Assembly (NCBI GenBank): GCA_036752825.1
Contig: DAIORV010000003.1
Span: 3,674 to 67,673, forward strand
Length of the DNA: 64,000 nt
Reading direction: 5' to 3'
Source: Chloroflexota bacterium
GTDB taxonomy: Bacteria > Chloroflexota > UBA5177
A model generated the notes under the pieces. It saw nothing but the letters and a program-made list of their open reading frames with translations, did no database searches and had not been told where the DNA came from. Within the stretch, counting starts at the first letter, position 1, and every line of letters begins with the position of its first letter. Shown here one piece after another: positions 16,499 through 61,525 of the stretch. A program made the position numbers and the translations under genes.

Positions 16499-18079
16499 AT
16501 GGTCACGCGACAACGAGACCAGAAGATTACATACACGACGATGAGCGTCGAGCAGGCCGAGAGCTTCAACCGGGATTATGACCGCGCTCTGGATCAGGTG
16601 CGGTCTCAGCTGGGCCGCCGATATCCCCTTTACATAAATAACCAAGCCGAGTCCTCGACGAATCCTGTCTTTGAAGACCGAAGCCCAAATGACACTCGTG
16701 TGGTCCTCGGAAATTTCGAGGAGGGCGGGAAGCAGCATGCCGATGCTGCAATTGAAGCCGCTCGGGGCGCCTTTCCCGCGTGGTCGTCGTATCCCTGGCA
16801 GAAGAGGATCGAGATTCTACGACGCGGAGCCGAGATCTTCCGACAGCGTAAATATGAGATTGCTGCGTGGCTTTCCTTGGAAGCGGGGAAGCCGCGCCTG
16901 GAATCGATGGGCGAGGTAGAGGAGGCTGCGGACCTCATTTTCGGGTACTGCGGGTACATGGAGGACGCCAACGGCTTCGTAGTCGAGATGGAACGCCTGT
17001 CGGCTCAGGAGGCGAATCACAGCGTTCTACGGCCATATGGCGTCTGGATCGTCATTGCTCCGTTCAATTTTCCTGTCGCACTCACGACGGGAATGATTGC
17101 GGGCGCCCTGGTGGCCGGGAACACGGTTGTCTTTAAGCCCTCGCACGAGACTCCCCTGGTCGGGACAAAAGTGTTCGAGTGCCTCCGGGATGGCGGTCTT
17201 CCGGCCGGCGCGCTGAACTTCGTTACGGGCCATGGAAACCAGATCGGTGAACAGCTCTCCAGCCATCCGAGCGTAGATGGCATCGTGTTCACGGGATCGG
17301 CTCAGGTGGGCACGCGACTGTTTAGAGAATTCAGCAAAGAGCGACCACGACCGTGCATTGCCGAAATGGGGGGCAAGAACCCGACTATCGTCACCGATTC
17401 GGCCGATCTTGACAAGGCCGTGGAGGGAACGGCAAGGGCCGCCTTCGGCTACAGCGGGCAGAAGTGCAGCGCGACCTCTCGCGTCTACGTGCACGACTCG
17501 GTTGCCGGGGAGTTTACGAGGCGATTGGTTGAACGCACTCAGCAGCTTGTGGTGGGACCGGCGGAGCGAGACGATGTCTTCATGGGTCCTGTCATCAACC
17601 GCACGGCGTACGAGCGTTTTCAGCAGGCGTGCGAGAGATCTCACAACGATGGGGAGATCCTCAGCGGAGGAAACGTGGTGACAGATGGGCCCCTGAAGCA
17701 CGGGTACTTTTGCGCTCCCACCATCGTGTCGCTGCCGAAAGACCATCAGTACTTCTACGAGGAGTTGTTTGTTCCGTTGGTGGCCGTGGCGAGAGTCTCG
17801 TCACTCGACGAGGCCCTGACGCTCGCCAATGATTCGAAATACGGATTGACGGCCGGAATATTCACGGAGGACGAACGAGAGCAGCAAGAATTCCTGAAGC
17901 GCATGGAGGCCGGAGTAATCTACGTCAATCGCCGCGGTGGCTCGACGACCGGGGCATGGCCACGAGTACAGTCCTTCGGCGGCTGGAAAATGAGCGGCTC
18001 TACGGGTAAGAACGCCCTCGGACCGTACTACGTCCAGCAGTTCATGCACGAGCAGTCGCAAACCGTCGTCACGGACTAG
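16499..18079 (+). CDS. pruA: Aldehyde dehydrogenase, P5C/glutamate-semialdehyde dehydrogenase-like
   Basis: APFNFP, FKPS, FTGS, AEMGGKN, FGYSGQKCSATSR, EELFVP, YGLTAG, FGGWKMSG. RBS GGAGG. Confidence 0.8.
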   Translation: MVTRQRDQKITYTTMSVEQAESFNRDYDRALDQVRSQLGRRYPLYINNQAESSTNPVFEDRSPNDTRVVLGNFEEGGKQHADAAIEAARGAFPAWSSYPWQKRIEILRRGAEIFRQRKYEIAAWLSLEAGKPRLESMGEVEEAADLIFGYCGYMEDANGFVVEMERLSAQEANHSVLRPYGVWIVIAPFNFPVALTTGMIAGALVAGNTVVFKPSHETPLVGTKVFECLRDGGLPAGALNFVTGHGNQIGEQLSSHPSVDGIVFTGSAQVGTRLFREFSKERPRPCIAEMGGKNPTIVTDSADLDKAVEGTARAAFGYSGQKCSATSRVYVHDSVAGEFTRRLVERTQQLVVGPAERDDVFMGPVINRTAYERFQQACERSHNDGEILSGGNVVTDGPLKHGYFCAPTIVSLPKDHQYFYEELFVPLVAVARVSSLDEALTLANDSKYGLTAGIFTEDEREQQEFLKRMEAGVIYVNRRGGSTTGAWPRVQSFGGWKMSGSTGKNALGPYYVQQFMHEQSQTVVTD

Positions 18080-18471
18080 ACGACCTCGATCGACTCCTCG
18101 GTGACGTCGTCGCCGTCCATGCGATAGGCGTGCATGATCGGCTGCTCCGGGTCGGCCAACGATAGGATCAAGTACAGCGTTTCGGGGTAGAACGCTAGCC
18201 GGCGGTCTTCTGGAGATGGATAAGCCCGAGTGTGCGTGTGTGAATGGTAGATGGCCGCCAGATCCCAGTCGTTGTCCTCGATCTCCAGCATTGCATGCAG
18301 CTGCTGCTTCGGATCCATCTTGTAGTGGACGGGGCTCGAGTCGGAGTTTTCGATAGGGTAGAACTTCACGACCTTGCCGTTCTCCGCAGCCAGTAGGCCG
18401 CATCCCTCGTTGGGGAATTGTTCACGCGCCTGCTCGATCATGGCTTCCACGAAATGGCGCGCGATCACCAC
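18076..18471 (-). CDS. mec: JAMM/Mov34 (MPN+) peptidase, CysO-Cys hydrolase-like
   Basis: EGCG, YHSHTHTRAYPSPED JAMM motif. Start overlaps the cysM stop. Confidence 0.88.
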   Translation of the reverse strand: MVIARHFVEAMIEQAREQFPNEGCGLLAAENGKVVKFYPIENSDSSPVHYKMDPKQQLHAMLEIEDNDWDLAAIYHSHTHTRAYPSPEDRRLAFYPETLYLILSLADPEQPIMHAYRMDGDDVTEESIEVV

Positions 18472-19436
18472 AAGAATGCGCCTTCCAGATCTTCAGAAAG
18501 CTCCGAAAGATCAGCCGTCCAGAGATTGCCGCTCAAGTACTTCCAACCGGCGTCGGGAAGGAGAGCGACGACCGTGCCCCCTTTCATACCCGCGGCATAT
18601 TTGAGGGCCGAGTGGACGATGGCCCCGGAAGAAACGCCCGCGAAGATACCTTCTTCGCAGGCCAAACGTCGCATCATCTCGATGGCGGGCTCGCTTGGCA
18701 CCAGAATCTTTGCGTCGAGAACCGTGGGATCGAAGATTGGTGGAACAAATCCTTCCTCAAGACTGCGAAGACCCTGTACCAAGTCGCCCGGCAGCGGTTC
18801 GGCTGCCACGATCTTGACCCCCGGTCGTTCCTCTTTCAAGCGTCGACCGACCCCCGTTAGAGTGCCCCCCGTGCCCAAGCCCGCCACGAAGACATCTACG
18901 TCCGGGACATCCCTGAGTATTTCCGGCCCTGTCGTCTCGTAATGTGCGCGTGGATTTGCGTCGTTTCCGTACTGGTTCAGGACCCAGTAACGGTGCTCTT
19001 TGTCGAGCTCTTTTGCCATCTCAATGGAGCCGTTGGTACCTCGCTCAGCCGGCGAATCGATAATCTCCGCACCCAGGATCTCCAAGAGTTTCCTTCGCTC
19101 CGGCGTGACGTTCGATGGCATGACGGTAACTACCCGGTATCCTTTGACCCGACTGACCATGGCGACCGCGATGCCGGTGTTGCCACTCGTCGGCTCCAGC
19201 AGAATGTAGTCAGGTGATTCCGCACGGTCCTCGAATTCCTCGATCAGATACTTGGCTACCCGGTCCTTTACGCTGCCGCTCGGGTTCATGCCTTCGAGCT
19301 TCGCGAGCAGCCGAACGTGCGGATATGGGTTGAGCCTGGACAGCTCGACGACGGGAGTATTGCCGATTGCCTCGACAATGCTCGACGCCACGCCGGAAGA
19401 AACGCGAGGCAAGCCCGCATTCGAGGTGGACGTCAC
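18465..19436 (-). CDS. cysM: PLP-dependent cysteine synthase, sulfur-carrier-dependent type
   Basis: IGNTP, KLEGMNPSGSVKDR, EPTSGNTG, GLGTGGT, EEGIFAGVSSG, PDAGWKYLS. Confidence 0.92.
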   Translation of the reverse strand: MTSTSNAGLPRVSSGVASSIVEAIGNTPVVELSRLNPYPHVRLLAKLEGMNPSGSVKDRVAKYLIEEFEDRAESPDYILLEPTSGNTGIAVAMVSRVKGYRVVTVMPSNVTPERRKLLEILGAEIIDSPAERGTNGSIEMAKELDKEHRYWVLNQYGNDANPRAHYETTGPEILRDVPDVDVFVAGLGTGGTLTGVGRRLKEERPGVKIVAAEPLPGDLVQGLRSLEEGFVPPIFDPTVLDAKILVPSEPAIEMMRRLACEEGIFAGVSSGAIVHSALKYAAGMKGGTVVALLPDAGWKYLSGNLWTADLSELSEDLEGAFLW

Positions 19437-19442
19437 TTCGTA

Positions 19443-19712
19443 CTAACCGCCGGCCATCGCGGGCAGGATGATGACGGTATCACCGTCCGCCACGACGGTA
19501 TCGAGTTTTTGAAGATATTGGATGTCTTGGTCGTTGACGTACACATTCACGTATCGATGCAGCTGGTCCTCATCGAAGAGCTGGCTGCCTAGCTCCGGGT
19601 AATGTTTGGCTGCATCGCGCAGAATCTCACCGACGGTGGCTCCCGAGGCCACAATGCTCTTGGCTCCTCCGGTGTGTCCTCTCAGGACGGGCGGAATGCG
19701 GACAGTACTCAT
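19443..19712 (-). CDS. cysO: MoaD/ThiS-family sulfur carrier (CysO-like)
   Basis: MSTVRIPPVLR, VNVYVNDQDI, C-terminal PAMAGG. RBS GAGGAG. Confidence 0.9.
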   Translation of the reverse strand: MSTVRIPPVLRGHTGGAKSIVASGATVGEILRDAAKHYPELGSQLFDEDQLHRYVNVYVNDQDIQYLQKLDTVVADGDTVIILPAMAGG

Positions 19713-19889
19713 GCTTCTCCTCGTCCAAGCCAGCCACGCCGGCACGCCAGGACACAGACGCGGTTTCTAAGAAAGGGGCGGTACGGCACTTGGCAGACTG
19801 AATCGGGCCGGCAAGCTCGATCTCGTCGTTTCCGCCGCCTCGTTGTGAGCGATTGTACAAGGTGGCTTCCGGCACTCGGCGCCCTCTCG

Positions 19890-20120
19890 TCAGCGATGGT
19901 GGGAGGGATTCGTCGTCGAAGCAAACTGCTTCGAGATCCCTGCGAGCACTGTTCGGGGACCGACGATGTCCCACGCAAAGGGCTGATGCTCTCGAATCGA
20001 TTTGAAGTAACGTGCGACCACAGTAAGGTCTGCGGAGCCGAGCGCAAGATCCTTGACTCTACGGTCGTTGGTGTAGAGACAGCCATGGTCCTCGTACCAG
20101 CCTCGCAGCTCGTAGTCCAA
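19890..20120 (-). CDS. Hypothetical 76-aa protein, putatively LexA-regulated
   Basis: TTG start 6 nt after GGAGG, with its own extended -10 promoter and SOS box upstream. Confidence 0.75.
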   Translation of the reverse strand: MDYELRGWYEDHGCLYTNDRRVKDLALGSADLTVVARYFKSIREHQPFAWDIVGPRTVLAGISKQFASTTNPSHHR

Positions 20121-20143
20121 GCTCGACCTCCGGCACCGCTGAC

Positions 20144-20166
20144 AGAACGAATGTTCTAATATAGCA
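20144..20166 (-). promoter_or_regulatory. Extended -10 promoter (TGcTATATT) with adjacent LexA/SOS box AGAAC-N4-GTTCT
   Basis: Plus strand AGAACgaatGTTCT at 20144-20157, directly abutting the -10 at 20158-20163. Confidence 0.78.
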
Positions 20167-20177
20167 TGCCGTTTCGT

Positions 20178-21047
20178 TCAGGAGATCTGGCGCAAGGCCA
20201 TGAGGCAACCAACCCCGAGAAGTCCAGCGGCGGGGGCGAACAGTTTGAAGAGCAGCAGTCGCGCCGGTCTCTCGGTCGTGTTGCGGGCGACGATTGCAGC
20301 GACTCCAGCTACGACAAGACTTGCAATCAGAACCGTGGCCGCTGAAACGGAATGAGCAGCCACAACCAGAGCAGTGCCGGCGAGAGCGCTAAGCGCGTAC
20401 AGAGTGAAGATGGTTGGGACGAGTCGCCGTTCTCCGAGAACCACGGCAAGGTTGCGGACTCCCATCTCGCGGTCCGTCTCGAGGTCCGGCGCAGCGTTTG
20501 CAAGATGGGCGGCCGCAATGATTGGAGCACCGGCTGCGTAGACGAGTAGAAAGCTGAGATTCAGCCGAGAGTTGATGAGCCATATCCAGGTCAGCAGACC
20601 CATGAAGCCCGCTAGATAGCCGGCGACGCTAAATGGTCCCCTGCTAAGCCAGAGGTCGTAAGCCCATCCACCTGAGGTTGCGAGCAGAAGGACGATCATC
20701 GACGGCCATCCGAAGGTGAGCGCAAAGAGCGCCGAAACCAGTGCCGCGGAAACAGTCAAGACAAGAGCCGATCGCTCTGTCGCCTGGCCGCAGGCGATGG
20801 GTTTGTCGCGCTGGAAAATCCGGTCAATATCCTTGTCGACGTAATCGTTGAGGGCGCCTACCGAGGCCTGGCAGAAGAGCACGGCGGCTACGGCGCGGAG
20901 AAGAAACGAACCTCCGGGGTATCCCCCATGAGCTACGAGGACCAGTGCCGCGGACGTGAGAACCACGATCGACACCGGAAACGGATGAACGAGTCGAGCG
21001 ATGGCCCAGGCACGAGACAGGGGCGTCACGGCAGCCGCCCCACCCAC
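20178..21047 (-). CDS. UbiA-family prenyltransferase
   Basis: Asp-rich motifs NDYVDKDID (followed by DKPI) and NAAPDLETD, multi-pass hydrophobic. Confidence 0.88.
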   Translation of the reverse strand: MGGAAAVTPLSRAWAIARLVHPFPVSIVVLTSAALVLVAHGGYPGGSFLLRAVAAVLFCQASVGALNDYVDKDIDRIFQRDKPIACGQATERSALVLTVSAALVSALFALTFGWPSMIVLLLATSGGWAYDLWLSRGPFSVAGYLAGFMGLLTWIWLINSRLNLSFLLVYAAGAPIIAAAHLANAAPDLETDREMGVRNLAVVLGERRLVPTIFTLYALSALAGTALVVAAHSVSAATVLIASLVVAGVAAIVARNTTERPARLLLFKLFAPAAGLLGVGCLMALRQIS

Positions 21048-21929: not shown

Positions 21930-22007
21930 TCAGGCCGCCAAGTAGACTCTTTCGTGCCCGCATTGACCCGCAATAGAAGGGGCAATCGCTGGGAGGAGTC
22001 AGGAAGC

Positions 22008-22193
22008 ATGCAGGACATCAGCCGAGCAAAGTATGTTCAGCTGCGACGCGAGGGCGGCCACTTCTCAATAGTCTTGCTGGACGAGAACCGTGAGGAGATC
22101 GGGCACGGCTACCGAGGGCCGACAGTAAGACGAGCCGAGGCAGATCTCAAATACTGGACGCGCGACAAGAAGCTGGAACAACTACCGGACTAG
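22008..22193 (+). CDS. Hypothetical 61-aa protein
   Basis: ATG after GGAGGAG/AGGA, fills the gap up to the metK 3' end. Confidence 0.6.
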   Translation: MQDISRAKYVQLRREGGHFSIVLLDENREEIGHGYRGPTVRRAEADLKYWTRDKKLEQLPD

Positions 22194-44653: not shown

Positions 44654-47266
44654 CTAAACGCCAATCGGCTCCGGAGAGGCAGTGCGAAAAGTGAGGTGGT
44701 CTCCATCGCGATCCACCAGCACCGTGTCCCCATCCGCGAACTCTCCCTGAAGGACCCGCATTGCCAGCGGATCCAGTATGTTCTTCTGAATGGCACGCTT
44801 TAATGGTCTCGCGCCGTACACGGGATCCCAGCCTTTCTCGGCTAGAAATGCTCGAGCTACAGTTGTGAGCTCGATCGACAGCTTGCGTGCGCCAAGCCTG
44901 CGCTGCAGACCGGCCAGCTGGATTTCGACGATCTTCTCAATCTCTTCTTTGGTCAAAGCGTGGAAGATGATGATCTCGTCGACCCGATTCAAGAATTCGG
45001 GCCTGAAGTTGGCACGTAGCATTTCGGTGACGGCATCCCGCATGTCCTCGTAGCTCTCGTGCTGCATGTCCTGGATAAGGGTGCTCCCCACGTTGGAGGT
45101 CATGATGACCACTGAGTTCTTGAAATCGACGGCGCGCCCCTGGCCGTCTGTGAGCCGGCCGTCATCGAGGATCTGAAGCAGTACGTTGAACACGTCGGGG
45201 TGCGCCTTGTCGATTTCGTCGAGCAAGATAACCGAGTAAGGCCGCCGCCGAACCGCCTCCGTCAGCTGGCCTCCCTCCTCGTAGCCGACGTAGCCAGGAG
45301 GAGCGCCGATGAGCCTGGCAACTGTATGCTTTTCCATGTACTCGGACATATCTATCCGGACCATGGCCTGCTCATCGTCGAAGAGGAATTCGGCAAGGGC
45401 TTTAGCCAGCTCTGTTTTTCCGACGCCTGTGGGCCCCAGAAAGATGAATGAACCGAGAGGTCGATTGGGGTCCTGAAGGCCCGCTCGAGCACGGCGCACG
45501 GCGTTGGCAACCGCCTCGATTGCCTCTTCTTGACCGACGATCCGGTCGTGCAGGCGCTCCTCCATGGTGACTAGCTTCTGGACCTCGCCTTCCAGCAGTC
45601 GGGTGACTGGAATGCCGGTCCATTTGGCTACAACCTCGGCGACGTCATCCTCGCCCACTTCTTCTTTCAGCATGGCCCCCCGACTTTGAAGATCCGCGAG
45701 GCGGCTTTCGGCCTCCGTCAAGCGTTTTTCAAGCTCTACCATGCGCCCGTAGCGGAGCTCCGCTGCCTTGGCGAGATCGGTCTGTCGTTCTGCCCGTTCT
45801 ATGTCCTGCTTGGTCTGTTCAATCTCTTCGCGAGTGCTTCGGATGGCGGCTATCGCCTCTTTCTCGGCCTCCCACTGAGCTTTGAGCTCATCGGACTGCG
45901 ACCGAAGCTCCGCGATTTCCTTCTGGATTCGGTCATAGCGTTCCCTGGTTGCCTCGTTTCCGGCCTCGGCGCCGAGTGCCGTGCTCTCGATCTGGAGCTG
46001 CATGATGCGCCGCTCGATCTGATCGATCTCGTACGGCATGGAATCGATTTCCATGCGCAGGCGGCTCGCCGCTTCATCGATGAGATCTATAGCCTTGTCC
46101 GGTAGAAATCGATCTGTGATGTATCGGTTGGAGAATACAGCAGCCGCCACAAGCGCGGCGTCCGTGATTTTGACGCCGTGGTGGACTTCGTATCGCTCCT
46201 TCAGTCCACGCAGGATGCTTATGGTGTCGTCCACGTCCGGCTCTGGGACCATCACCGGCTGAAACCGCCGTTCGAGAGCCGCATCCTTCTCGATGTATTT
46301 GCGGTACTCGTCCAGGGTGGTGGCGCCCACCAGACGCAGCTCGCCGCGGGCCAGCATCGGTTTCAACATGTTTCCGGCATCCATGGCGCCTTCTGCCGCG
46401 CCGGCTCCCACGACCGTGTGGAGCTCGTCGATGAAGAGGATGATCTCTCCCTGCCCTTCCTGGACCTCTTTGAGAGCAGCCTTCAACCTCTCCTCGAACT
46501 CGCCTCGGTACTTCGCTCCGGCAACCATTGCCGCCAGGTCCAGCTGAATCACGCGTTTGCCTTTTAGAGGCTCGGGAACGTCTTCGTCAACGATTCGTTT
46601 GGCAAGACCCTCGACGATTGCCGTTTTGCCGACTCCGGGCTCGCCTATCAGCACTGGATTGTTCTTGGTGCGGCGAGACAGCACCTGGATCACGCGCCTG
46701 ATCTCTTCGTCCCGGCCTATCACCGGGTCGACCTTTCCGCGCCGGGCCTGATCGGTCAAGTCACGCCCGTATCTCTCAAGAGCTTGATACTTGCCCTCCG
46801 GGTTTTGATCCGTCACGTGCTGGCCACCGCGAATGGAGGTGAGTGCCGAAAGCACCTGTCCACTGGTAAGCCCGTTCGAGCGAAGCATCTTGCCGACTGT
46901 GCTTGAATCGCGCTCGTCGACCATTGAAAGCAAGAGGTGCTCAACCGAGACGTACTCATCTCGCATGTCCTCCATGATGTCGTGGGCTCTCACCAACGCC
47001 GAGCGGAGCTCCGCGGAGATGGCCGGCTGCGATGCACCGCCATAGGCAGTTGCCAGCCGATCTAGGAGCTGGCTGTTTTCACGCTGGATCGCATCAACGC
47101 TGGCTCCCACCTTGGCGATGATGCTGGGAGCCAGTCCCTCGGGCTGCTGCAACAGAGCCGCTAGAAGGTGTTCCTCTTCAACCTGGGTGTTTCCTCGCTC
47201 CGCAGCAAGCTCCTGCGCTGCGAGAAGTGCTTGTTGGGACTTCTCCGTAAATCTCTGTGTGTTCAT
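44654..47266 (-). CDS. clpB: ATP-dependent chaperone ClpB
   Basis: Two Walker A motifs ([16 protein letters not shown]), middle coiled coil [18 protein letters not shown]. Alternative start 47281. Confidence 0.98.
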
Positions 47267-47293
47267 GGGCTTACCACTCACCGCTGAGGGCGG

Positions 47294-47692
47294 CTAGACG
47301 GGAGTTTCTTGCTCGTGCTGTGCGCCCTGCAGCCTTAATATGATTTCCTTTAGTCGGTGAACATCCGCTTCGTGCTGCAGGCGCACCCGTCGTACCTCTT
47401 CAGCAAACTCGTTGTGGAGCCTTTCCATTTGCTCGCGCATGTTCAGGATCACTTCCACCCCGGCCAGATTGACCCCGAGGTCTTCGATGAGGCGCCGAAT
47501 CTGCTGAACCTTCTCGATGTCTTGAGGCGAGTAATAGCGAATCTCGCCTTTGCCGCGAAAGGGCTCTACCAGACCGAGACGCTCATAGTGGCGCAAGGTC
47601 TGCTGATGGACGTTGACAAGCTCGGCCGCCACACTGATCGTGTATCTGCGTCGTTCATGCATTCTTCCATCCTTCCGTCGTTCGGCCATCAC
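47294..47692 (-). CDS. hspR: MerR-family heat-shock repressor (HspR-like)
   Basis: YTISVAAELVNVHQQTLRHYERLGL, LGVNLAGVEVIL, located between dnaJ and clpB. Confidence 0.85.
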   Translation of the reverse strand: MMAERRKDGRMHERRRYTISVAAELVNVHQQTLRHYERLGLVEPFRGKGEIRYYSPQDIEKVQQIRRLIEDLGVNLAGVEVILNMREQMERLHNEFAEEVRRVRLQHEADVHRLKEIILRLQGAQHEQETPV

Positions 47693-47701
47693 GCTTCCTC
47701 C

Positions 47702-48706
47702 CTACACGCCCGCCTGAGCAAGCTGTTGGAAAAGCTCACGCTGTTTGTCATCCAGCGTGGTGGGAAGCGTGGCGCTGAGCTTCACGTACAAGTTGCCACG
47801 CTGGCCCGTCTTTAGGTTGGGCATGCCCTGACCCGCAAGCCTGAGCGTGCGCCCGTTTTGAGAGCCGGGCGGAATCCTCATAGTGACGGGAGAGCCGAGA
47901 GTCGGAACCTGGGTTTCTCCCCCGAGAACGAGAGTCGTGATCGGCACCTGGACTTCCGTGTAGAGGTCGTCGCCCTCTCGGCGGAAGCGCGAGTCTGGAG
48001 CGATGTGAACTATCAAATAGAGGTTGCCGGCCGGGCCCCCGTTCACCCCTGGGTTGCCCTCACCGGCAATCCGCACTTTCGATCCCTCGCGGACGCCAGC
48101 GGGAATCTTGACGTCGAGACGTTTGTTCTTTGCTACAAAACCACTCCCGTGGCACGCCGGGCAGGGCTGATCTTTCACTACGCCCGTCCCGTGACACGTC
48201 TCGCAAGCTACTTGCGTCTGCAAGGTAAAAGCTCGCTGGACACCGTTCATGGCTTCCTGCAGCGTGATTTCGACCGGTTGCTCCAGGTCAGAGCCCCGCT
48301 GCGTCTGCGGCGGCCGCCCGCGTCCACGGCCGAAGATCGACCCAAGATCGAAATCGAAACCGCCGCCCGTCCCGCTGCCCCGCTGACCAAACAAGGTTTC
48401 GAAGAAGTCGCTGAAGTCGGCGCCCCCGGCGTTGGTCGTGTACGCGTAGTCCGTGCCTCCACGACCAGCTCGCCCCATGCGATTTGCCCAGTCGGGTCCC
48501 AGTGTGTCGTACGTTCGACGCTTCTCGGGATCCATTAGAACCGCATTGGCCTCGTTGATCTCCTTGAACCGAGTCTCCGCGGTTTTGTCGCCTGGGTTCA
48601 CGTCGGGATGATATTTTCGCGCGAGCTTGCGATAGGCACTTTTGATCTCTTTCTCGGAAGCCTTCTTATCGACTCCGAGAATTTTGTAGTAGTCCTTGTA
48701 TTCCAT
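47702..48706 (-). CDS. dnaJ: DnaJ-family co-chaperone with half zinc finger
   Basis: J domain with HPD, G/F-rich region, only two CxxCxGxG repeats, C-terminal domain. Confidence 0.93.
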   Translation of the reverse strand: MEYKDYYKILGVDKKASEKEIKSAYRKLARKYHPDVNPGDKTAETRFKEINEANAVLMDPEKRRTYDTLGPDWANRMGRAGRGGTDYAYTTNAGGADFSDFFETLFGQRGSGTGGGFDFDLGSIFGRGRGRPPQTQRGSDLEQPVEITLQEAMNGVQRAFTLQTQVACETCHGTGVVKDQPCPACHGSGFVAKNKRLDVKIPAGVREGSKVRIAGEGNPGVNGGPAGNLYLIVHIAPDSRFRREGDDLYTEVQVPITTLVLGGETQVPTLGSPVTMRIPPGSQNGRTLRLAGQGMPNLKTGQRGNLYVKLSATLPTTLDDKQRELFQQLAQAGV

Positions 48707-48781
48707 GCTGTGTACCCTCGCCCCGCGTGTAGAGCTCGCGCCGCTAGGCTGTCTCCACCGTTTGCAGGTTTTGACGTCCCG

Positions 48782-49414
48782 CTATACGTCGTCCTGATCG
48801 TCGTGAACGCTCACAACTACCTGTGCGGGGCGCAGCACTTCGTCGCCATACATGTAGCCGTTTCGCACAACCTGCACGACCGTATGATCGCGCACGCTGG
48901 CGTCGTTCACTCGCTGCACCGCCTCCTCCAGATGGGGGTCAAATGTCTTGCCTTCCGCGTCGATGGCTTCGACCCCCTCCAGCTGGAGTAGGTTGTCGAG
49001 CTGATACTGCGTGAGCCGAACGCCTTCCATGATGCTTTCGCCATTGGTCGGAGAGCTCTCCCCGTAATGCAGCGCGCGTTCGAGGTTGTCTTTGACGCTG
49101 AGCAATCGAACCAAAAGGTCTCGTCTCGCGGAGCGCGTCAAGTCTGCAAGCGTTCGATCCATGCGCTTCTTGTAGTTATCCATGTCGGCTCTACAGCGCA
49201 AAAATTTGTCGTAGTTTGCGGCCGCGTCCTGCTGGGCGCGATGTAGCTCGTGGAGAAGCTTTTCTTCCTCGCTGGCTGGGCCGTCGTCCACGACAGTCTC
49301 GCCGGCGACGGCAGGTGAATCCCCAGACGCAGCCTGCGCCTCGCCCGCGGATCGAGGGTCCAGCCCTGCCTCCCGAACGTCTTGGATTGGAGGCTCGTTT
49401 CCTTCTGTCATCAA
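48782..49414 (-). CDS. grpE: Nucleotide exchange factor GrpE
   Basis: RCRADMDNYKKR, DNLERAL, FDPHLEEAV, GYMYGDEVLRPAQVVVS. Confidence 0.96.
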   Translation of the reverse strand: MMTEGNEPPIQDVREAGLDPRSAGEAQAASGDSPAVAGETVVDDGPASEEEKLLHELHRAQQDAAANYDKFLRCRADMDNYKKRMDRTLADLTRSARRDLLVRLLSVKDNLERALHYGESSPTNGESIMEGVRLTQYQLDNLLQLEGVEAIDAEGKTFDPHLEEAVQRVNDASVRDHTVVQVVRNGYMYGDEVLRPAQVVVSVHDDQDDV

Positions 49415-49430
49415 TCGCTCCTACAAGAGG

Positions 49431-49455
49431 GGAGGCGGGCTCTCGACCCGCCTCC
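49431..49455 (-). other. Intercistronic hairpin between dnaK and grpE
   Basis: GGAGGCGGG/CCCGCCTCC 9-bp stem, followed by CCTCTT on the minus strand. Confidence 0.6.
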
Positions 49456-49466
49456 TGGATCGGCTC

Positions 49467-51317
49467 TTAGCCTTCGTCGCTCGAGCGGAACTCCGCGTCG
49501 ACGACGTCGTCGGACTCAGGTGTCGATCCTTCGGGTGTACCCGATGTGCCTCCCGCTCCGGCGCCGACACCTTCGGCGGCGGGATCGGGTTGGCTGTACA
49601 GTGAAGCCGCAACCGGCTGCCACGCCTGCTCGAGCTCCTGCCGGGCGGACTGAATAGCAGACTGATCGCTACCCTTCAGCGCTTCGCGAAGCTTGTTAAG
49701 GGCAGCCTCGACGGTCTGACGATCACTTTCGGAGATCCGATCTCCGGACTCCTTGAGCGTCTTTTCCGTGCTGTACGCAAGCGTATCGGCTGCGTTTCTT
49801 TCCTCTGCCGCGGTGCGGGCCTCGGCGTCGCGCTGAGCGTACTCTTCCGCTTCCTTCACCATGCGATCGACATCGCTGCTGCTCAAATTGGTCGAGGCGG
49901 TCACCTTGACGCTCTGTTCACGGCCGGTTCCCGTATCTTTTGCGTGCACATTGAGGATGCCGTTGGCGTCGATGTCAAACGTAACCTCGACCTGTGGCAT
50001 CCCTCTCGGTGCGGGCGGTATGCCCTCGAGCCGAAAACGCGCCAAGCTCATGTTGTCGCGAGCCATCGGACGCTCGCCCTGCGTCACGTGAACGTCGACG
50101 GCCGTTTGATTGTCCTCCGCCGTGCTGAACACTTCGCTCTTGGCAGTCGGAATGGTCGTGTTTCTCGGAATGAGGACTGTGTTCACGCCGCCCAGAGTCT
50201 CGATGCCGAGCGAGAGGGGAGTGACGTCCAAAAGGACCACGTCCTTCACGTCACCCATCAAGACGCCCGCTTGTATGGCCGCACCTATGGCGACGACCTC
50301 GTCTGGGTTCACGCCTTGATGCGGATCCTTTCCAGTCAGCTTTCGTACGAGCTCCTGGATGACGGGCATCCGCGTCGATCCGCCGACCAGCACCACTTCG
50401 TTGATTTGCTCAGCCGACAGCTTCGAATCCTGAAGGGCCCTGTTGAAGGGACCGACACAGCGCTGCGTCAGATCTTCGGTGAGCTCCTCAAACTTTCCAC
50501 GGGTGATCGTCTTGATCAAATGCTTTGGTCCGTTCTGATCGGCCGTGACAAACGGCAGATTGATTTCTGTCTGTACCACGCTCGAGAGCTCCACCTTGGC
50601 CTTCTCGGCCGCCTCCAAAAGGCGCTGAAGGGCCTGACGGTCCTTGCGGAGGTCAATGCCTTCGTCCTTCTGGAACTCTGCGGCTACCCAATCGACGATG
50701 CGCTGGTCATAGTCATCGCCACCGAGATGCGTATCGCCCGACGTCGATTTGACTTCGAAGACACCGTCACCGACCTCGAGCACCGAGACGTCGAAGGTCC
50801 CGCCACCAAGATCAAAGACAAGAATCGTCTCCGCGGTTTTCTTGTCGAGTCCGTAAGCGAGAGCCGCGGCCGTGGGCTCATTGATGATGCGCAGGACCTC
50901 AAGGCCGGCGATGGTGCCCGCGTCCTTGGTTGCCTGCCTCTGGCTGTCATTGAAATAGGCCGGCACGGTAATGACCGCCTGGGTCACCGGCTGCCCGAGG
51001 TACTTCTCAGCGTCATTCTTGAGCTTGCCGAGAATCATCGCCGAGATTTCTTGTGGCGTGAACCGTTTGTCGTCAATCTGGACGTTGTCGTTGGTCCCCA
51101 TCTTCCGCTTGATCGAAGCGATAGTGCGATCCGGATTGACCACGGCCTGACGCTTTGCAAGCTGTCCGACGAGCCGCTCCCCGGTCTTGGTAAATGCGAC
51201 CACGGACGGCGTAAGCCTGTTTCCCTCAGTGTTCGGGATGACCATGGGCTCGCCGCCTTCCATGACGGCTACGACCGAGTTCGTGGTACCGAGATCGATA
51301 CCTACTACCTTCGCCAT
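49467..51317 (-). CDS. dnaK: Chaperone DnaK (Gram-positive-type, lacking the N-terminal ~24-aa insert)
   Basis: [58 protein letters not shown]. Confidence 0.99.
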
Positions 51318-51382
51318 GAACTGAAACTCCTTCCGAAAAACCTGTTTAGTGCGCCTCACGAGCGCATATATTTGCCTGCCCT

Positions 51383-51413
51383 AGCCTAGTTGCTTGAGCC
51401 TCTTGTTGTCAAG
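51383..51413 (-). promoter_or_regulatory. dnaK promoter TTGACA-18-TAGGCT overlapped by HAIR-like inverted repeat
   Basis: CTTGAGC-N7-TGTCAAG at 51393-51413 versus the HAIR consensus CTTGAGT-N7-ACTCAAG. Confidence 0.75.
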
Positions 51414-51440
51414 ATTATTTGAGCCTCCTCCTGTAAATGA

Positions 51441-51468
51441 AGGCGGACGCGTCCAAACGCGTCCGCCT
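51441..51468 (-). terminator. Hairpin terminator after lon
   Basis: Perfect 12-bp stem AGGCGGACGCGT/ACGCGTCCGCCT with 4-nt loop, followed by TCATTT. Confidence 0.75.
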
Positions 51469-51477
51469 CAAAAACTG

Positions 51478-53943
51478 TTACCCGGCAGGTCCGGCGGGTG
51501 GCTGCCAGCTACTCTCGAGACCGGGCAAGAGCACGGCATCGAAATGGGCGTAATGCATCACGTCTGCGACCGCCGGAAGCTCTAGAAGTGCCTGTTTCAT
51601 TACCTCGTCCATGTGGTCAACCGGGAGGAGCTCCATTTGATCTCGAACGTCCTCGGGAATGTCGTCCACATCTTTCAGGTTCTTTTTGGGGAACAGAACC
51701 GTGCGCACGCCGGCACGATGAGCTGCCAGAACCTTCTGCTTTAGGCCTCCGATGGGGAGTATGTGGCCCCGGAGGGTTATCTCGCCGGTCATTGCCAGGT
51801 CGCGGCGCACCTTCCGCCCGGAGAGAGCGCTGACGAGAGCCGTGGCCATGGTTATTCCCGCCGACGGTCCATCCTTCGGAATGGCGCCGGCAGGCACGTG
51901 GATGTGTACTGCGTGCTCTTCAAAGGCGCTCGGCTTTATTCCAAGCTCTCTGGCTCGAGAATGGACGTAGCTCATGGCGGCGCGAGCCGACTCTTGCATC
52001 ACGTCGCCAAGCTGGCCGGTAAGGATGAACTGGCCTTTGGCGTCCATCAAGGTGACTTCGACCGGTATGACGTCTCCGCCCTCGTCGGTAACGACGAGGC
52101 CCGTGGCGACGCCTATCTCGTCCTTCTCCTCGGCCAAGCCCCAGGTGAAGCGAGGTTTTTTGAGATACGTCTCGACGTCGGTCGCGTCCACCGTCACGGT
52201 GGTGGCGCCTTCCTCGGCATAGCGGCGTGCAAGCTTGCGGCAGATGGTTGCGATCTCACGCTCTAGCTGCCTTACGCCGGCCTCTCGCGTGTACTCGCGA
52301 ACGATCTTCTGCATTGCCTCGCGAGAGATGGTCAGCTGCTCTTCGCTGATCCCGTGGAATGGCTTCTGTTTGGGTGCCAGGAAGCGCTCCCCAATCTCCA
52401 CCTTTTCGACCTCGGTGTACCCGGCGAGCTCGATGATCTCCATGCGATCGCGCATCGGCTCGGGAATCGTCCAGAGGACATTAGCGGTCGTGATGAAGAG
52501 AACCTTAGACAGGTCGAATGCGACCTCGAGGTAGTGGTCCTGAAAGTCGGTGTTCTGCTCCGGGTCCAGGACCTCGAGCAGAGCTGACGACGGGTCGCCG
52601 CGGAAATCGTTGCCGACTTTGTCTATCTCGTCCAGCATGATGACGGGATTGTTCGATCCGGCCTGCCGGATCGATTGAATAATGCGCCCTGGAAGGGAGC
52701 CGATGTACGTCCGGCGGTGGCCGCGGATCTCCGCCTCGTCGTGCACACCGCCGAGTGACATGCGGGCGAACTTCCGTCCCAGCGCGGCGGCAACCGATTT
52801 GCCGAGACTCGTCTTTCCAACTCCCGGAGGCCCGACGAGGCAGATGATGGGACTGCGGAGCTCGGTTGCCAGCTTGCGGACCGCGAGATGCTCCAGAATT
52901 CGTTCCTTCACGATCTCGAGTCCAAAATGGTCTCGATCGAGCTGCTCGGCAGCGGCCTTGATGTCCAGCTGGTCGTCCGTGCTGACCGACCACGGCATGC
53001 CCACGAGCCAATCGAGGTAGGTGCGAATCATTCCGACCTCTGGGGAAGCCGCGGGCATTCGCTCCAACCGGTCAACCTCTTTGAGGGCCTTCTCTTTGGC
53101 CTTCTCTGGCATTTCGGCTTCGTCGATCTTGGTTCGCCACTCAGCAGCTTCCGCCTGCTCGGGATCGAGCTCTCCCAGCTCGCGCTGAATCTCTTTCATT
53201 TGCTCACGGAGAAGATACTCGCGCTGCGTCTTGTCGATGTTCTTCTGTACTTCGCTGGAGATCCGCGTCTTGAGCTCCAGAACCTCGACTTCTTCCGACA
53301 GGAGCTGGTGAGCCCGGCGCAGGCGCTCGAGCACGTCGATCGCCGTCAGAAGGTCCTTGCGCTCATCAGGATTTAGCTCGGGCATGTGTCCGACCAGGTC
53401 GGCCAGCCAGGCGGGATCTTCGACATCTCTAACATTTGAGAGGGCGTCAGCGGGTAGATTGCCTCGCAGGTTTATGTACTTGGTGAAGAGCTCTTTGACC
53501 GCTTCCATGAGCGCGGTCAGCTCTTTCGTATCGGACACTTCTTGCGAGATGACCTCGACCTCTACCTCGAGATACGGCTCGGTTTTGGTGAAATTGAGCA
53601 CGCGCACACGCTGCTCTCCTTGGGCCAGCAGCTGGACGCTTCCATCAGGCAGCCGGAACATGGGGCCGATAGTGGCCAAGACGCCGACGTCCATGAGGTC
53701 GTCCGGGCCTACCTCTTGTTTCGCCGCATCATTCTGGGTGACCAAGATGATGCGGTGCGGCCGCTGCTTCACGGCTTCATCCACGGCGAGCAGAGACGGC
53801 TGTCGCCCGACCTGAATGGGCTGCATCATATGCGGGAACACGACCGTTTCGAACAGAGGAAGTACCGGAAGACGTAAGTTCTTCTCGAGCTGGTCGTCTT
53901 CTTCAGGGATGGTTGGTTCAGTCATTCGAAGATCCTTGTTCAT
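51478..53943 (-). CDS. lon: Lon protease
   Basis: [46 protein letters not shown]. Confidence 0.98.
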
Positions 53944-56941: not shown

Positions 56942-58126
56942 TTACAGCGCCAGGCCGCTCGTCGAAAGCGCCTCCGCTGCATAGGTCGGGAAGGTACGCG
57001 TGCCGGTCCGCACGTAGAAGTCGACCACCTGCTCGGCGATCCTATCCCAGGAATAGAGCCTGGCGGTCTCCCTTCCCCTCTGACCCATGGCTTCAGCGGC
57101 CGTTCTGTCTTGGAGGAGGGCGCATACGGCCTCGGCCAGGGCGCGCTCGTTGCGCGGCGGGACCATTATCCCTTCGTTCCCCTGCGTCATGACCTGCCGA
57201 TAGCCCTCGATGTCGGAAGCGACGACGGGTACGCCAGACGCCATGGCTTCGAGGAGGACAATGCCGAAGCTTTCGCCCTGGGTCGCGGGAGCACAGAACG
57301 CGTCGGCAGACCTGAGGTAGCGGGGCAGGTCGTCCTCACTCACCCTCCCCACGACGACGATGTCGTGTAGACGGTGGCGCTTTATGTAGGCGGTGTACGG
57401 CGAGTCCTCCCAATCGCCGGCACCCACAATGATGAACCGTGCGTCTGGGAAGGCTTCTTTGACCTGCGGATAGGCGCGCAACAGATAACCCACGCCTTTT
57501 CTCTTCTCGGGCCTGCCGACGAAGAGAATGTTTGGTCTGCCGTCGCAAAACTGAGGTAAGGGCTCCAGGCTCTCGGGCGCAAATCTTGCCAGCTCGACCC
57601 CATTGGGAATGACCCTGTAAGGTGCCATGAAGTACTGGCGCACGAAGCGCTTGGCAGCTCTAGACACAGCGATTCTGCCGTCGAGCTGGCGGAAGGCAAA
57701 GCGCAGAACCGGTCTTCCATAAAAGTAGCCGTAGTAAGAACCGCGGTAGGCGTGAAAGGTTCCAACGTTCAGAGCTTCCGAGTAGCGGAGCACGGTCGGA
57801 GGCAACGACGGCATCAGGGGTTCGTGGACGTGCACCACATCGAACTGCTCGGACTCCAGAACCTCCCGAACTCGCCGTGCCAATCGAAAGGAGAGCGTGA
57901 TGCGCGCAATCGAACCGTTCGCCGGAACTCGCCGAACGCGACCGATCCGGTAGACGTCCGTCTCTTCGCGCTCAATGTTTCGATTTGAAGACGGCGCCAT
58001 GATCCGGACTTCGTGTCCCATCGCCACGAACTCCCGGTGAAGGTGCATCACGTGGTTGGTCACACCACCCGGATACGGATAGTCGTACGGGGACACGAGG
58101 GCGATCTTCAACCGCCTTCCCCGCAC
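56942..58126 (-). CDS. pimA: GT4 phosphatidylinositol mannosyltransferase-like
   Basis: IALVSPY...PGGVTNHV, HVHEP, GTFH, IPNGV, RKG, ESFGIVLLEAMA, plus operon context. Confidence 0.85.
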   Translation of the reverse strand: MRGRRLKIALVSPYDYPYPGGVTNHVMHLHREFVAMGHEVRIMAPSSNRNIEREETDVYRIGRVRRVPANGSIARITLSFRLARRVREVLESEQFDVVHVHEPLMPSLPPTVLRYSEALNVGTFHAYRGSYYGYFYGRPVLRFAFRQLDGRIAVSRAAKRFVRQYFMAPYRVIPNGVELARFAPESLEPLPQFCDGRPNILFVGRPEKRKGVGYLLRAYPQVKEAFPDARFIIVGAGDWEDSPYTAYIKRHRLHDIVVVGRVSEDDLPRYLRSADAFCAPATQGESFGIVLLEAMASGVPVVASDIEGYRQVMTQGNEGIMVPPRNERALAEAVCALLQDRTAAEAMGQRGRETARLYSWDRIAEQVVDFYVRTGTRTFPTYAAEALSTSGLAL

Positions 58127-58202
58127 GGTGCGAGGTTTTCATGAGCCGGTGCATCTGCGTCTTCGGCCTGACCTGAGAGGCCATTCAGCTCATGCCACCC
58201 GC

Positions 58203-59132
58203 TCATAGCACTTCCTCAGTTTGGTGATTTATGGTAGCAGCCAGTTCAGCAGGTCCCGCCCGGCGCCACATCGGCGAAAAGTTGAGCCACTGCCCCGGGT
58301 AACGTCGGATGAGCGCCTCCATTTCTGCTACGACGCGGCCGATGTTTTGAAGATCGTCCGACTCCGAATTTTCCGACCGAGTAATAGGTATCGGTCCTAT
58401 CACGTGAGCTGCGAATGTGTCATCTCCCCGTCGGATGCCAACACCAAGCAACAATGTCGACCCGGTGCGGCGCGCTAGGGAGACCGGGCCGCGCGGAAGG
58501 GCAGTGAATCGCCCGAAAAAGCGCGTCTCCAGACCTCCGCGTCCGCCTATCATGCGGTCAGCCGCCAGGCCCACGATCTCGCCCGCTCGCAGAGCCCTGA
58601 TCAGCTCTCGGGGGGCCTGGTCGAGGGGCACCACCCTCACTCCTTTGCTGGTGCGCAAGTCGACCAGGAAATCAAAAAGCGCCTGCGGCTGCATGCGTTC
58701 CACGGGCACAATCATCCGGTATCCGCGCTGCGCGAGCACCTGGCCAACCATGTCGTAGTTCCCCAAATGCATCGTCGCCAGGACGACTCCCTTACCGCGG
58801 GATACGGCCTCCGCCAGGCGATCCCAGTGATCGATCTCAACCTGTGCTTCAATTTCCGCACCCGTCGTTCTGCGGATGCGCAACGTGTCTATCCAGTTCT
58901 TAGCGTCCGTGCGAAAGGCTTCGACCGCCAAAGGCCTGAGCTTCCGGTCGTTGGGCGAAGTTTCCATCACCACCGCAAGGTTTTCCAACACCGCACGGCG
59001 AGGTCTTGAGAAGAGCAGAAATGCGAGCTTCCCCGCGGAGTCGGACAGCGAATGGGCCACAGATACGGGAATGAGAGGAAGAGCCCAAGCGGCGATTCGC
59101 AGGACTACGTACAGTGCGAGGTTGGGGATCAT
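58203..59132 (-). CDS. PatA/LpxL-family acyltransferase (copy 2)
   Basis: HLGNYD, LAADR, FFGR-TALPRGP, PGQW. Confidence 0.88.
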   Translation of the reverse strand: MIPNLALYVVLRIAAWALPLIPVSVAHSLSDSAGKLAFLLFSRPRRAVLENLAVVMETSPNDRKLRPLAVEAFRTDAKNWIDTLRIRRTTGAEIEAQVEIDHWDRLAEAVSRGKGVVLATMHLGNYDMVGQVLAQRGYRMIVPVERMQPQALFDFLVDLRTSKGVRVVPLDQAPRELIRALRAGEIVGLAADRMIGGRGGLETRFFGRFTALPRGPVSLARRTGSTLLLGVGIRRGDDTFAAHVIGPIPITRSENSESDDLQNIGRVVAEMEALIRRYPGQWLNFSPMWRRAGPAELAATINHQTEEVL

Positions 59133-60058
59133 CTCTCCCCGGAACCTGTGGGCAACGCCTCACCGGCTCCGATCCCGACCGGGCTCTGCGCCGGCGGCCA
59201 CATCGGGCGAAACATATACCACTGATCGGGTCTCGCACGAACTACCGATTGCAGAATGTCTATGAGCCTTTGCATGATCGCTTGAAGGTCCTTGTCCTTC
59301 TCTCCGGTTGCAGTCCATGTCACGGGCGGATAGATCACGCTTTCAAACGAGCGATCGGGCTGGCGGTACATGAACACCGGAAGTAAGGCTGCCCCCGTTT
59401 TCATGGCGAGGAGTGCTGGACCGGCCGGCACCGCGGTCTCACGGCCGAAGAAGCGAACGGGAACGCCTTTGTCTCGTTGGACGGGACGGTCGAACAGCAT
59501 GGTCAACGTGCCACCTGAACGGAGCACCCGGAACATCTCACGGACGTTGCTTACGCCGACCAGATTGATACCTTTCTCGCGTCGCTTCCGCTGGATCAAG
59601 CGGTCGAGATACTCGGGTCGGAAGGTGTCGTATACGGCGTGGAAATCTGTGAAATCCGCGAGTCGCAGCCCACCCACTTCGATCGTCCCGAAATGCGCGC
59701 TGGCCAGAATCACCCCTTTGCCTTCGTCCAGTGCATCCTGCAGATTTTCAAGCCCCGTGATCTTCATGGAGGCCACGGTCTTGTGCTCCGAGTCGAGGTT
59801 GGGAAGATCGAGAAATTCCACCAGGTACTTACAGTAATTGCGTATCGACTTCAGCGCGAAATGTCTGACGCGCGGATCTCGAGGAGGCAGGTCAAGCACG
59901 GTCGCCGTGTTTGCCAGAAGCACATTTCGCTTGTCCCCCCAAAGTCCCCAGACGAAGAAGACAAGGTCGCCCACGGCGGTACCGATTAGGTAGCGCCACG
60001 GGCGAGGAATGAAACGGGAGAGGAAGGCGCCTACCTGAATGACCAGATACAGCGCCAT
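59129..60058 (-). CDS. PatA/LpxL-family acyltransferase (copy 1)
   Basis: HFGTIE, LFDR, FFGRETAVPAGPA, RPDQWYMFRPMW. Confidence 0.88.
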   Translation of the reverse strand: MALYLVIQVGAFLSRFIPRPWRYLIGTAVGDLVFFVWGLWGDKRNVLLANTATVLDLPPRDPRVRHFALKSIRNYCKYLVEFLDLPNLDSEHKTVASMKITGLENLQDALDEGKGVILASAHFGTIEVGGLRLADFTDFHAVYDTFRPEYLDRLIQRKRREKGINLVGVSNVREMFRVLRSGGTLTMLFDRPVQRDKGVPVRFFGRETAVPAGPALLAMKTGAALLPVFMYRQPDRSFESVIYPPVTWTATGEKDKDLQAIMQRLIDILQSVVRARPDQWYMFRPMWPPAQSPVGIGAGEALPTGSGER

Positions 60059-60066
60059 CGCGGCCC

Positions 60067-61176
60067 CTAACTCACGCTGGGAGCGGGGACGGCGGCGTCG
60101 ACTCGCGCGGTGGCGCTGATGAAAGCCTCGGTCATCTCGCGGGCCTGCTCGTCCTTGTATTGAATGGGTGGGGACTTCATGAAGTAGGACGCCGGTCCTT
60201 CGAGGGCGCCCGAGATGCCGTGGTCTAGCCCCAGCTTGCAGCACCGGACAGCGTCGATTACCACGCCCGCAGAGTTGGGCGAGTCCCACACCTCGAGCTT
60301 CAGCTCGACGTTGAGCGGCACATCGCCAAACGAGCGTCCCTCCATGCGGATATAGGCCCATTTACGATCGCTGAGCCAGGCGACATAGTCGCTGGGACCG
60401 ATGTGAACGTTCTCGGCTCCAATGTCGTAGTCGAGCTGCGACGTGACGGCATTCGTCTTTGAGATCTTCTTCGATTCGAGCCGCTCGCGCTCGAGCATGT
60501 TCAGAAAGTCGGTGTTGCCGCCAACATTGAGCTGACTGGTCCGTTCCACGCGCACGCCGCGATCCTTGAAGAGGTTGGTGAGGACGCGATGGACGATGGT
60601 GGCTCCAACCTGGGACTTGATATCGTCCCCAATGACAGGGAGGCCGGCCTCTTTGAAGCGTCCCTGCCAGTACGGCTCTCGGGCGATGAAGACAGGTATG
60701 CAATTAACGAACGCACATCCGGCTCGCAAGATCTGCTCGACGTACCACTTGGTCGCCTCCTCGCTTCCAACGGGAAGGTAGCTGACCACCACATCTGTTT
60801 TCGTGTCGTTGAGAATTTGAACGACGTTGGCCGTCGGGCCGGGCGCCTTGGTAATGACCTCTGAGAGGTACTTTCCCAAACCATCGTGGGTCATTCCTCG
60901 TTCGACCTTGACCCCCGCAAACGGTGCATCGGCGAAGCGAAAGGTGTTGTTTTGCCCTGAATAAATCGCTTCCGACAGGTCCTTGCCTACCTTCTCCACG
61001 TCGACATCGAAGGCGCAGCTGAACTCGATGTCTCGAATGTGGTAGCCGCCGAGGTTCACATGCATCAGACCCGGGATCTGCTCGTCTTCGGCGGCGTTCT
61101 TGTAGTACTCCACACCCTGGACCAGCGAGGACGCGCAATTGCCGACACCGATGATTCCCACTCTTACTTTCGACAT
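60067..61176 (-). CDS. ino1: myo-inositol-1-phosphate synthase
   Basis: [70 protein letters not shown]. Confidence 0.97.
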
Positions 61177-61192
61177 ACCAAGTCTCCTTTCG

Positions 61193-61525
61193 TCATCTCC
61201 GTGATGCCGGCTCCAACGAACGTGGGGCTTCGGCAGCTTCTTGTTGATCAACCCTCTCTAGACCGAATGTTTCTTCGACGCGAAGGCCGTATCCCTGGAG
61301 AACGCGCCTGTTGAGGGAACACAAAACTTGACGCCCTGTCCGCTGGGTTTTCACGATACCTGACCGCCGAAGGATGCGAAGATGCCAGGATATCAAAGGC
61401 TGGCTGAGTCTGAGCTCGGCGCCCAGCTGGGTGACGCTGACCTGCTCGTGCAATGCCAGGTACAGCGCGATGCGAAACCGCTTGCGGTCGCCCAACGCGC
61501 GAAAATACAGCGACAGGTCCTGCAC
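61193..61525 (-). CDS. ArsR/SmtB-family transcriptional regulator
   Basis: [40 protein letters not shown]. No recognisable metal-binding motif. Confidence 0.9.

Follow-up and report, generated by a model that had tools for sequence, protein, structure and literature searches.

A putative LexA-repressed promoter in front of a conserved small-protein gene of uncultured Chloroflexota

Small proteins controlled by LexA include DinI and SulA of Escherichia coli, YneA and YnzC of Bacillus subtilis, ChiZ of Mycobacterium tuberculosis, and SidA and DidA of Caulobacter; small SOS genes typically modulate RecA or pause cell division. The LexA operator is the 'Cheo box' CGAACN4GTTCG in Bacillus and TCGAACN4GTTCGA in Mycobacterium; LexA of both genera, and of Dehalococcoides ethenogenes, reportedly recognises GAAC-N4-GTTC. 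The SOS regulon of the Chloroflexota is said to be known from one Dehalococcoides study, and a full-text literature search found nothing on Chloroflexota SOS boxes. Analysis of a 64-kb stretch of Chloroflexota DNA (the window, by which its full length is meant) pointed to a gene that resembles those for DinI, SulA, YneA, YnzC, ChiZ, SidA and DidA in that a short, lineage-restricted protein is encoded behind a strong LexA-type operator. A LexA-repressed, DNA damage-inducible promoter probably drives this standalone small-protein gene, referred to here as small76. The elements of the locus are:

20178..21047, minus strand: UbiA-family prenyltransferase gene, upstream of small76 and on the same strand (Pfam UbiA E = 2.1e-30; synteny)
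20166..20158, minus strand: extended -10 element TGcTATATT of promoter P1, read from the sequence
20157..20144, no strand: putative LexA-type operator AGAACATTCGTTCT, a perfect 14-bp palindrome, the single exact match in the window
20131..20127, minus strand: ribosome-binding site (RBS) GGAGG, 6 nt 5′ of the TTG, read from the sequence
19890..20120, minus strand: small76 coding sequence, 76 aa, TTG start, TGA stop (open reading frame list, homologues, codon-position bias and AlphaFold2 model)

Read on the minus strand, the region runs TGcTATATT-AGAACATTCGTTCT-N12-GGAGG-N6-TTG and continues into the 76-codon open reading frame (ORF), the sequence being ...ctgaacgaaacggcaTGcTATATTAGAACATTCGTTCTgtcagcggtgccGGAGGtcgagcTTGGACTACGAG...; the succession of extended -10, abutting box, RBS and ORF claimed in the original prediction was thus confirmed at 20166..19890. 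TGcTATATT directly abuts AGAACATTCGTTCT and, when the palindrome is taken as a 16-mer (TAGAAC..GTTCTG, 20143-20158), the two share the last T of the -10. Only 11 nt separate the stop codon of the UbiA-family gene from the TG that extends the -10, so P1 begins right after that gene. No recognisable -35 hexamer was found before P1, so the promoter call depends on the TG-extended -10; for the same reason, P1 was not called in a consensus promoter scan of positions 19400-20400. The operator had also been proposed to cover the transcription start: with the -10 placed at -12..-7 the box would indeed span about -6..+8, but this coverage of +1 follows by geometry from a predicted, unmapped start site. 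The sequence AGAAC-N4-GTTCT occurs once in the 64-kb window against 0.05 copies expected, with a match in 5 of 100 shuffles. Of the looser GAAC-N4-GTTC there are three copies where 1.25 are expected, and the two other than the operator lie within coding ORFs. By itself the exact match is only borderline; what gives it weight is where it lies and that relatives have kept it. A hairpin or terminator reading of the palindrome was ruled out (5 bp stem, no U tract), and an Rfam scan of the window returned two tRNAs only, with no riboswitch or leader near small76.

The small76 gene starts with the TTG at 20120 and ends with the stop codon at 19892..19890; its protein begins MDYELRGWYEDHGCLYTNDRRVK... 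A search of 5.8 billion protein clusters returned 30 homologous clusters (53-97% identity, 71-96 aa), all of them labelled 'hypothetical' and from Chloroflexota metagenome-assembled genomes (MAGs) wherever a source was named. The family alignment contains 24 invariant residues, including those of the motifs CLYT(D/N)DxRVKDLA and QPFAWDIVG, and the start position is conserved. When small76 was compared with nine orthologues, nucleotide differences at codon positions 1, 2 and 3 stood at 182:131:373. The ORF is a real, conserved gene. That the palindrome is a chance occurrence and the ORF spurious might be argued from the roughly 5% likelihood of one exact match in 64 kb, and from the many long spurious ORFs that high-GC DNA yields. 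The conserved length, start and invariant residues of the 30 homologues, the bias of substitutions towards the third codon position and the presence of the box in 14 of 14 loci refute this explanation, to which we attach practically no probability. The gene had been described as unannotated, which holds for its function but not for the gene call: the exact protein is already listed, as hypothetical, on 23 public contigs (among them NCBI GCA_003530725.1, GCA_002413265.1 and GCA_036805045.1), and the 2.35-Mb contig CAVTRL010000001.1 has an orthologue. Searched exhaustively by HMM, 1.84 billion representatives yielded only 17 hits, three of them spurious repeat proteins; the long repeat proteins P0032, P0045 and P0046 were rejected as homologues on account of their short repeated-motif matches. 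The family is therefore narrow, and judging from these searches it appears to be nearly confined to a single clade of uncultured Chloroflexota.

Of 16 homologous loci that were retrieved, 14 had enough upstream DNA. In every one of the 14 a single TAG(A/T/C/G)AC-N4-GT(T/G)CTA overlaps the -10 hexamer by 1-2 nt. The box lies 3′ of the -10 in 12 loci (TATAAT, TATTAT or TATCAT running into AG.AC) and 5′ of it in loci L004 and L005, where its right arm GTGCT provides the TG of the extended -10 (GTGCTATAAT and GTGCTAAAAT). The box has thus been kept independently of the promoter layout, and an operator apparently retained while the promoter shifted would be the pattern expected of a repressor site obliged to overlap the -10. 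When 13 upstream regions were aligned, the invariant columns were T-A-G-x-A-C...T-x-C-T of the box, one G of the RBS, and the T and G of the start codon; the right-arm G of the box was kept in at least 90% of these loci, and a purine-rich GGAGG/GGGGG block stood at the same place. Apart from the RBS and the start codon, the box is the sole conserved block upstream, and the surrounding DNA diverges. The third base of the left arm is free (A/T/C/G), giving the extended consensus TAG(N)ACA-N3-GTTCTA; most orthologues carry GTAC or GCAC in the left arm instead of GAAC, the commonest type of form being AGTACATACGTTCT. A matrix built from the small76 operators gave one match per locus and one in the window. 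A CIRCE (HrcA) reading of TAGCAC/GAGTGCTA was ruled out, the N9-spaced partner arm being absent.

Conservation of the box upstream of homologues, which the original prediction had named as a check, therefore held in all loci with upstream DNA and failed only further out, upstream of three distant homologues in other organisms (P0043, P0044 and P0047). The operator accordingly belongs to the Chloroflexota clade and not to the protein family as such. These distant members (67-75 aa) lie on contigs of 38-51% GC in a different gene context, not beside cys genes:

L025, 8104-8307: distant branch of the small76 family, lower-GC organism
L026, 440-786: distant branch of the small76 family, lower-GC organism
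L027, 1288-1509: distant branch of the small76 family, lower-GC organism

A 39-codon Cys-rich ORF was seen directly upstream of the distant homologue in two of the three loci: in L026 the homologue is translationally coupled to it and the ORF contains two CxxC pairs, and the same frame is present upstream in L027. In L025 and L026, the two loci long enough, the homologue is followed by a gene for an unknown protein of ~265 aa and by a GGACT-family gene; the homologue of L025 is closely preceded by a PemK toxin gene.

Neither the window and the 10 kb on its left side nor the homologous loci and fetched flanks yielded a lexA, recA or other repair gene when searched by tblastn with four LexA sequences (window and all loci) and by Pfam with about 45 window ORFs; LexA was likewise not found on Chloroflexota plasmids. 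Since the window and the loci of its relatives contain no lexA, the lexA promoters of other Chloroflexota were used for comparison. LexA proteins were retrieved with a probe 90% identical to the LexA of Roseiflexus sp. RS-1, and five lexA loci were obtained, from Roseiflexus, two MAGs labelled 'Chloroflexota/Chloroflexi bacterium', Kouleothrix and Chloroflexia SDU3-3; all of these promoters are from the class Chloroflexia, another class than the lineage of the window. Their positions are:

L028, 2880-2950: lexA promoter
L031, 2880-2935: lexA promoter
L035, 1870-1925: lexA promoter
L036, 1870-1935: lexA promoter
L037, 1880-1930: lexA promoter

All five read TTGACA - AG(A/C)ACA-N3-GT(T/G)T(C/T) - TATAAT-like - 5-9 nt - T(A/G)C(N)ACA-N3-GTTCTA. 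One box, of the AGAACAGGTGTTTC type, lies between the -35 and the -10, and a second, of the TACTACATCAGTTCTA type, just past the -10, each combining a strong and a weak half-site; L036 and L037 have an additional GAACAT after the boxes. When the matrix of small76 operators was run over the five Chloroflexia lexA loci, the lexA promoter was the top match in all of them, and in four the runner-up also lay inside it; in four loci 0-2% of shuffles reached the lexA score, and in the AT-rich one 27% did. A matrix made from the ten lexA boxes in turn had the small76 operator as its top match in 13 of the 14 loci. With this lexA-derived matrix the small76 site ranked only third in the 64-kb window, and its score of 14.9 fell inside the shuffle range, where the maximum averaged 13.9 and reached 17.3 at its highest.

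The small76 operator has the build of the GAAC-N4-GTTC class, namely a 14-bp dyad, arms of the form G-x-A-C / G-T-x-C, a free 4-nt spacer and overlap with the core promoter. In the window it matches GAAC-N4-GTTC perfectly, and boxes of this kind are also present in the Chloroflexia lexA promoters. It differs from that class in that the form here is TAG(N)ACA-N3-GTTCTA, with a variable third base in the left arm; binding by a LexA of this lineage is a prediction. The cyanobacterial LexA box is RGTACNNNDGTWCB, and lexA of Nostoc reads AGTACTAATGTTCT (PMC3091678). The orthologue form AGTACATACGTTCT (AGTAC-N4-GTTCT) resembles this box as found upstream of Nostoc lexA and uvrA (PMC3091678). The presence of the box in 14 of 14 loci, together with the two-way recognition between its matrix and the lexA promoters, makes LexA the likely regulator of small76. 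Repression by LexA is well supported by the comparison with Chloroflexia lexA and is predicted for the genome of the window; the central proposal, a new small protein under a LexA-type operator, thus stands on a real gene, a box found in every locus with upstream DNA, and lexA promoters with the same kind of box.

Directly downstream of small76 are genes for sulfur-carrier-dependent cysteine synthesis. In Mycobacterium tuberculosis the mec-cysO-cysM pathway (Rv1334-Rv1336) has MoeZ as its activating enzyme, and no small76-like gene or LexA box is known in the mycobacterial cluster. The corresponding features in the window are:

19852..19859, minus strand: P2, a second -10-like element, TGTACAAT (conserved downstream block in 10 loci)
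18076..19712, minus strand: cysO-cysM-mec operon, context of small76 and possible target of read-through
19443-19712, minus strand: cysO, ThiS family (Pfam, called gene, synteny)
18465-19436, minus strand: cysM, PALP (Pfam, called gene, synteny)
18076-18471, minus strand: mec, Prok-JAB (Pfam, called gene, synteny)

As in M. tuberculosis, the window has a ThiS-family CysO, a PALP-family CysM and a JAB-family Mec, to which the relatives add a rhodanese-ThiF protein similar to MoeZ; unlike the mycobacterial cluster, that of the Chloroflexota appears to have its own promoter, P2. The gene order in the clade is metK - small ORF - ubiA - small76 - moeZ-like - cysO - cysM - mec - (aldehyde dehydrogenase, opposite strand), the moeZ-like gene being missing here in the window (between 19713 and 19889) and in its 97% relative L006. 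A second conserved small ORF lies between the alpha/beta-hydrolase gene and metK: it occupies 22008-22193 on the plus strand of the window (longest ORF 21954-22193), has 61 aa as publicly called, is 55-64% identical in 11 related loci and belongs to no Pfam family.

Where present, the rhodanese-ThiF (MoeZ/MoeB-like) gene separates small76 from cysO. In 11 of 12 loci its reading frame contains a TGA codon exactly where the conserved catalytic Cys would stand:

L001, 6290-7441 (TGA at 7205): MoeZ-like gene with TGA; also in L002, L003, L005, L007-L009, L011, L012, L014 and L015

The context of the codon is ..PPPPSLAPT(TGA)(G/S)EAGVLGVLPG.., and ORF listing splits the gene into parts of 305 and 70 aa. 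A hairpin conserved at the nucleotide level (CCTGGG-CGTGCTT-CCCGGG) lies directly 3′ of the TGA. The TGA probably encodes selenocysteine with the help of a bacterial SECIS element; if so, the MoeZ-like protein would be a selenocysteine-containing CysO-activating enzyme.

Read-through from small76 had been suggested to link DNA damage to cysO-cysM-mec. No intrinsic terminator after small76 was seen in a scan of 19400-20400, and the RNA fold of the 177-nt spacer before cysO was no more stable than those of shuffles (z = +1.5). The idea is weakened, however, by P2. This element, of the (T)GTACAAT type and similar to an extended -10, was the sole conserved block 3′ of the small76 stop in an alignment of 10 loci, lying 30 nt past the stop in the window and 20-45 nt past it across loci, so the downstream cys operon most likely has its own promoter. 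Transcription from P2 would give a ~130-nt untranslated leader before cysO, without an Rfam match. Damage-dependent read-through is possible, though it is not needed to explain the layout.

A stronger form of the same idea would make P1 the damage-responsive promoter of the whole small76-(moeZ)-cysO-cysM-mec series, its main output being oxidation-resistant, sulfur-carrier-based cysteine synthesis under genotoxic or oxidative stress, with small76 as an accessory. In its favour, the genes share one strand and are separated by short gaps, their order is conserved in every locus, and the spacer after small76 has neither a terminator nor an unusually stable fold. On the other side, the TGTACAAT-like element after the small76 stop is found in all loci and makes a downstream promoter probable, the distant homologues are not adjacent to cys genes, and moeZ is absent from the window and L006 without loss of small76. 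Moreover, the whole 12-kb neighbourhood is syntenic in the clade, so adjacency carries little weight, and we regard this arrangement as very unlikely.

The conserved metK...cysO-cysM-mec neighbourhood also bears on whether the palindrome might be the operator of a dimeric repressor other than LexA, either small76 itself, acting on its own promoter, or a regulator of the sulfur genes (metK, moeZ-cysO-cysM-mec), for example a TetR-type protein like McbR. The occurrence of exactly one site per locus, always at the small76 promoter, is what autoregulation would give, and small76 has a basic tail. The McbR operator is TAGAC-N6-GTCTA, and its outer TAGA...TCTA is common to the palindrome found here. 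However, the core AC-N4-GT within G(N)AC-N4-GT(N)C has the geometry of LexA sites and not that of TAGAC-N6-GTCTA: an McbR-type operator (5-bp arms, 6 nt apart) was rejected because the conserved columns are G3, A5, C6, G11, T12 and C14, around a 4-nt spacer. Several sites at met and cys genes would also be expected of an McbR-type regulator, whereas there is one per locus; across the 14 loci no second site was found before metK, moeZ, P2, cysO or any other gene. Autoregulation in particular sits poorly with distant family members that lack a conserved palindrome, and with a structural model without a recognisable DNA-binding fold. Given also the mutual recognition of the motif and the lexA promoters, a repressor other than LexA appears unlikely.

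The structure prediction that had been proposed for small76 produced, with the family alignment, a confident AlphaFold2 model (pLDDT 88.4, pTM 0.73). Its elements are a strand at 3-7, a strand at 12-17, a helix at 20-28, strands at 33-38 and 49-55, and a helix at 56-69; the C-terminus is disordered in the model, and variable and basic in the alignment. In this model small76 is a compact, soluble domain of strand-strand-helix-strand-strand-helix order with a variable basic tail, and no membrane segment was found. Searches with small76 gave no match in Pfam, NCBIfam or PHROG; a PDB profile search (best E of 1.2) and Foldseek against the PDB (best E 0.41) returned nothing significant, and Foldseek against BFVD returned uncharacterised proteins only, the best being a phage protein (E 0.016). 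Neither these sequence nor these fold searches gave a link to DNA-damage functions. A beta-grasp sulfur carrier of the ThiS/MoaD/CysO kind was considered, given the neighbourhood and the strand-strand-helix-strand-strand order, and was ruled out: there is no PF02597 match, no ubiquitin-like chain among the Foldseek matches, and no GG at the C-terminus.

In sequence and fold, small76 bears no similarity to DinI, SulA, YneA, ChiZ, YnzC, YebG, SidA or DidA. YneA, ChiZ and SidA have a membrane segment or a LysM domain and small76 has neither, while the tail of DinI is acidic and that of small76 basic. Both half-sites of the small76 operator are near-consensus, unlike the lexA boxes, each of which has one weak half, and this suggests tight repression. 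By analogy with tightly repressed SOS genes, our guess is that small76 most likely binds and modulates a conserved cellular partner, with a checkpoint or repair-modulating role, and is not an enzyme.

Elsewhere in the window, a chaperone and protease cluster occupies 44654-53943 on one strand (minus):

51478-53943, minus strand: lon
49467-51359, minus strand: dnaK
48782-49414, minus strand: grpE
47702-48706, minus strand: dnaJ
44654-47281, minus strand: clpB

Genes for a myo-inositol-1-phosphate synthase, two homologues of lipid-A-type acyltransferases and a GT4 glycosyltransferase lie side by side at 56942-61251 (minus strand). The set recalls the synthesis of phosphatidylinositol mannosides in actinobacteria, a pathway unexpected in Chloroflexota.

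Control of small76 by LexA would work as follows. An extended -10 without a -35 is overlapped by the AGAAC-N4-GTTCT palindrome at about -6 to +8, and a LexA dimer on the palindrome would keep RNA polymerase either from forming the open complex or from leaving it. Once DNA is damaged, self-cleavage of LexA, stimulated by RecA, would free the promoter; the transcript would have a short leader (about 30 nt) whose GGAGG would direct translation of the 76-aa protein. In this scheme we infer the transcription start, LexA binding, induction by damage and the role of the protein. A more far-reaching proposal, which we put forward tentatively and regard as doubtful, is that small76 founds a new class of SOS effector with a small alpha/beta fold not seen before. 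Tightly repressed by LexA in one soil and permafrost clade of uncultured Chloroflexota, such an effector would target a conserved partner in cell division or replication, or RecA/LexA, and might add a coupling by read-through to (moeZ-)cysO-cysM-mec.

Regulation of this type is classical. The novelty lies in the regulon member, in a family that lacks any known relative or fold, and in an operator consensus that can be applied in a poorly studied phylum. The locus therefore represents a solid regulon prediction and not a new kind of mechanism. As far as could be found, the SOS regulon of the Chloroflexota is almost undescribed, and the operator TAG(N)ACA-N3-GTTCTA, footprinted by its conservation among relatives, could be used to map it in MAGs. 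The box of the phylum would bridge the Gram-positive (GAAC) and cyanobacterial (GTAC) forms, and small76, as a strongly constrained small family of unknown fold, is a candidate effector of the damage response in uncultured bacteria that are abundant in soil.
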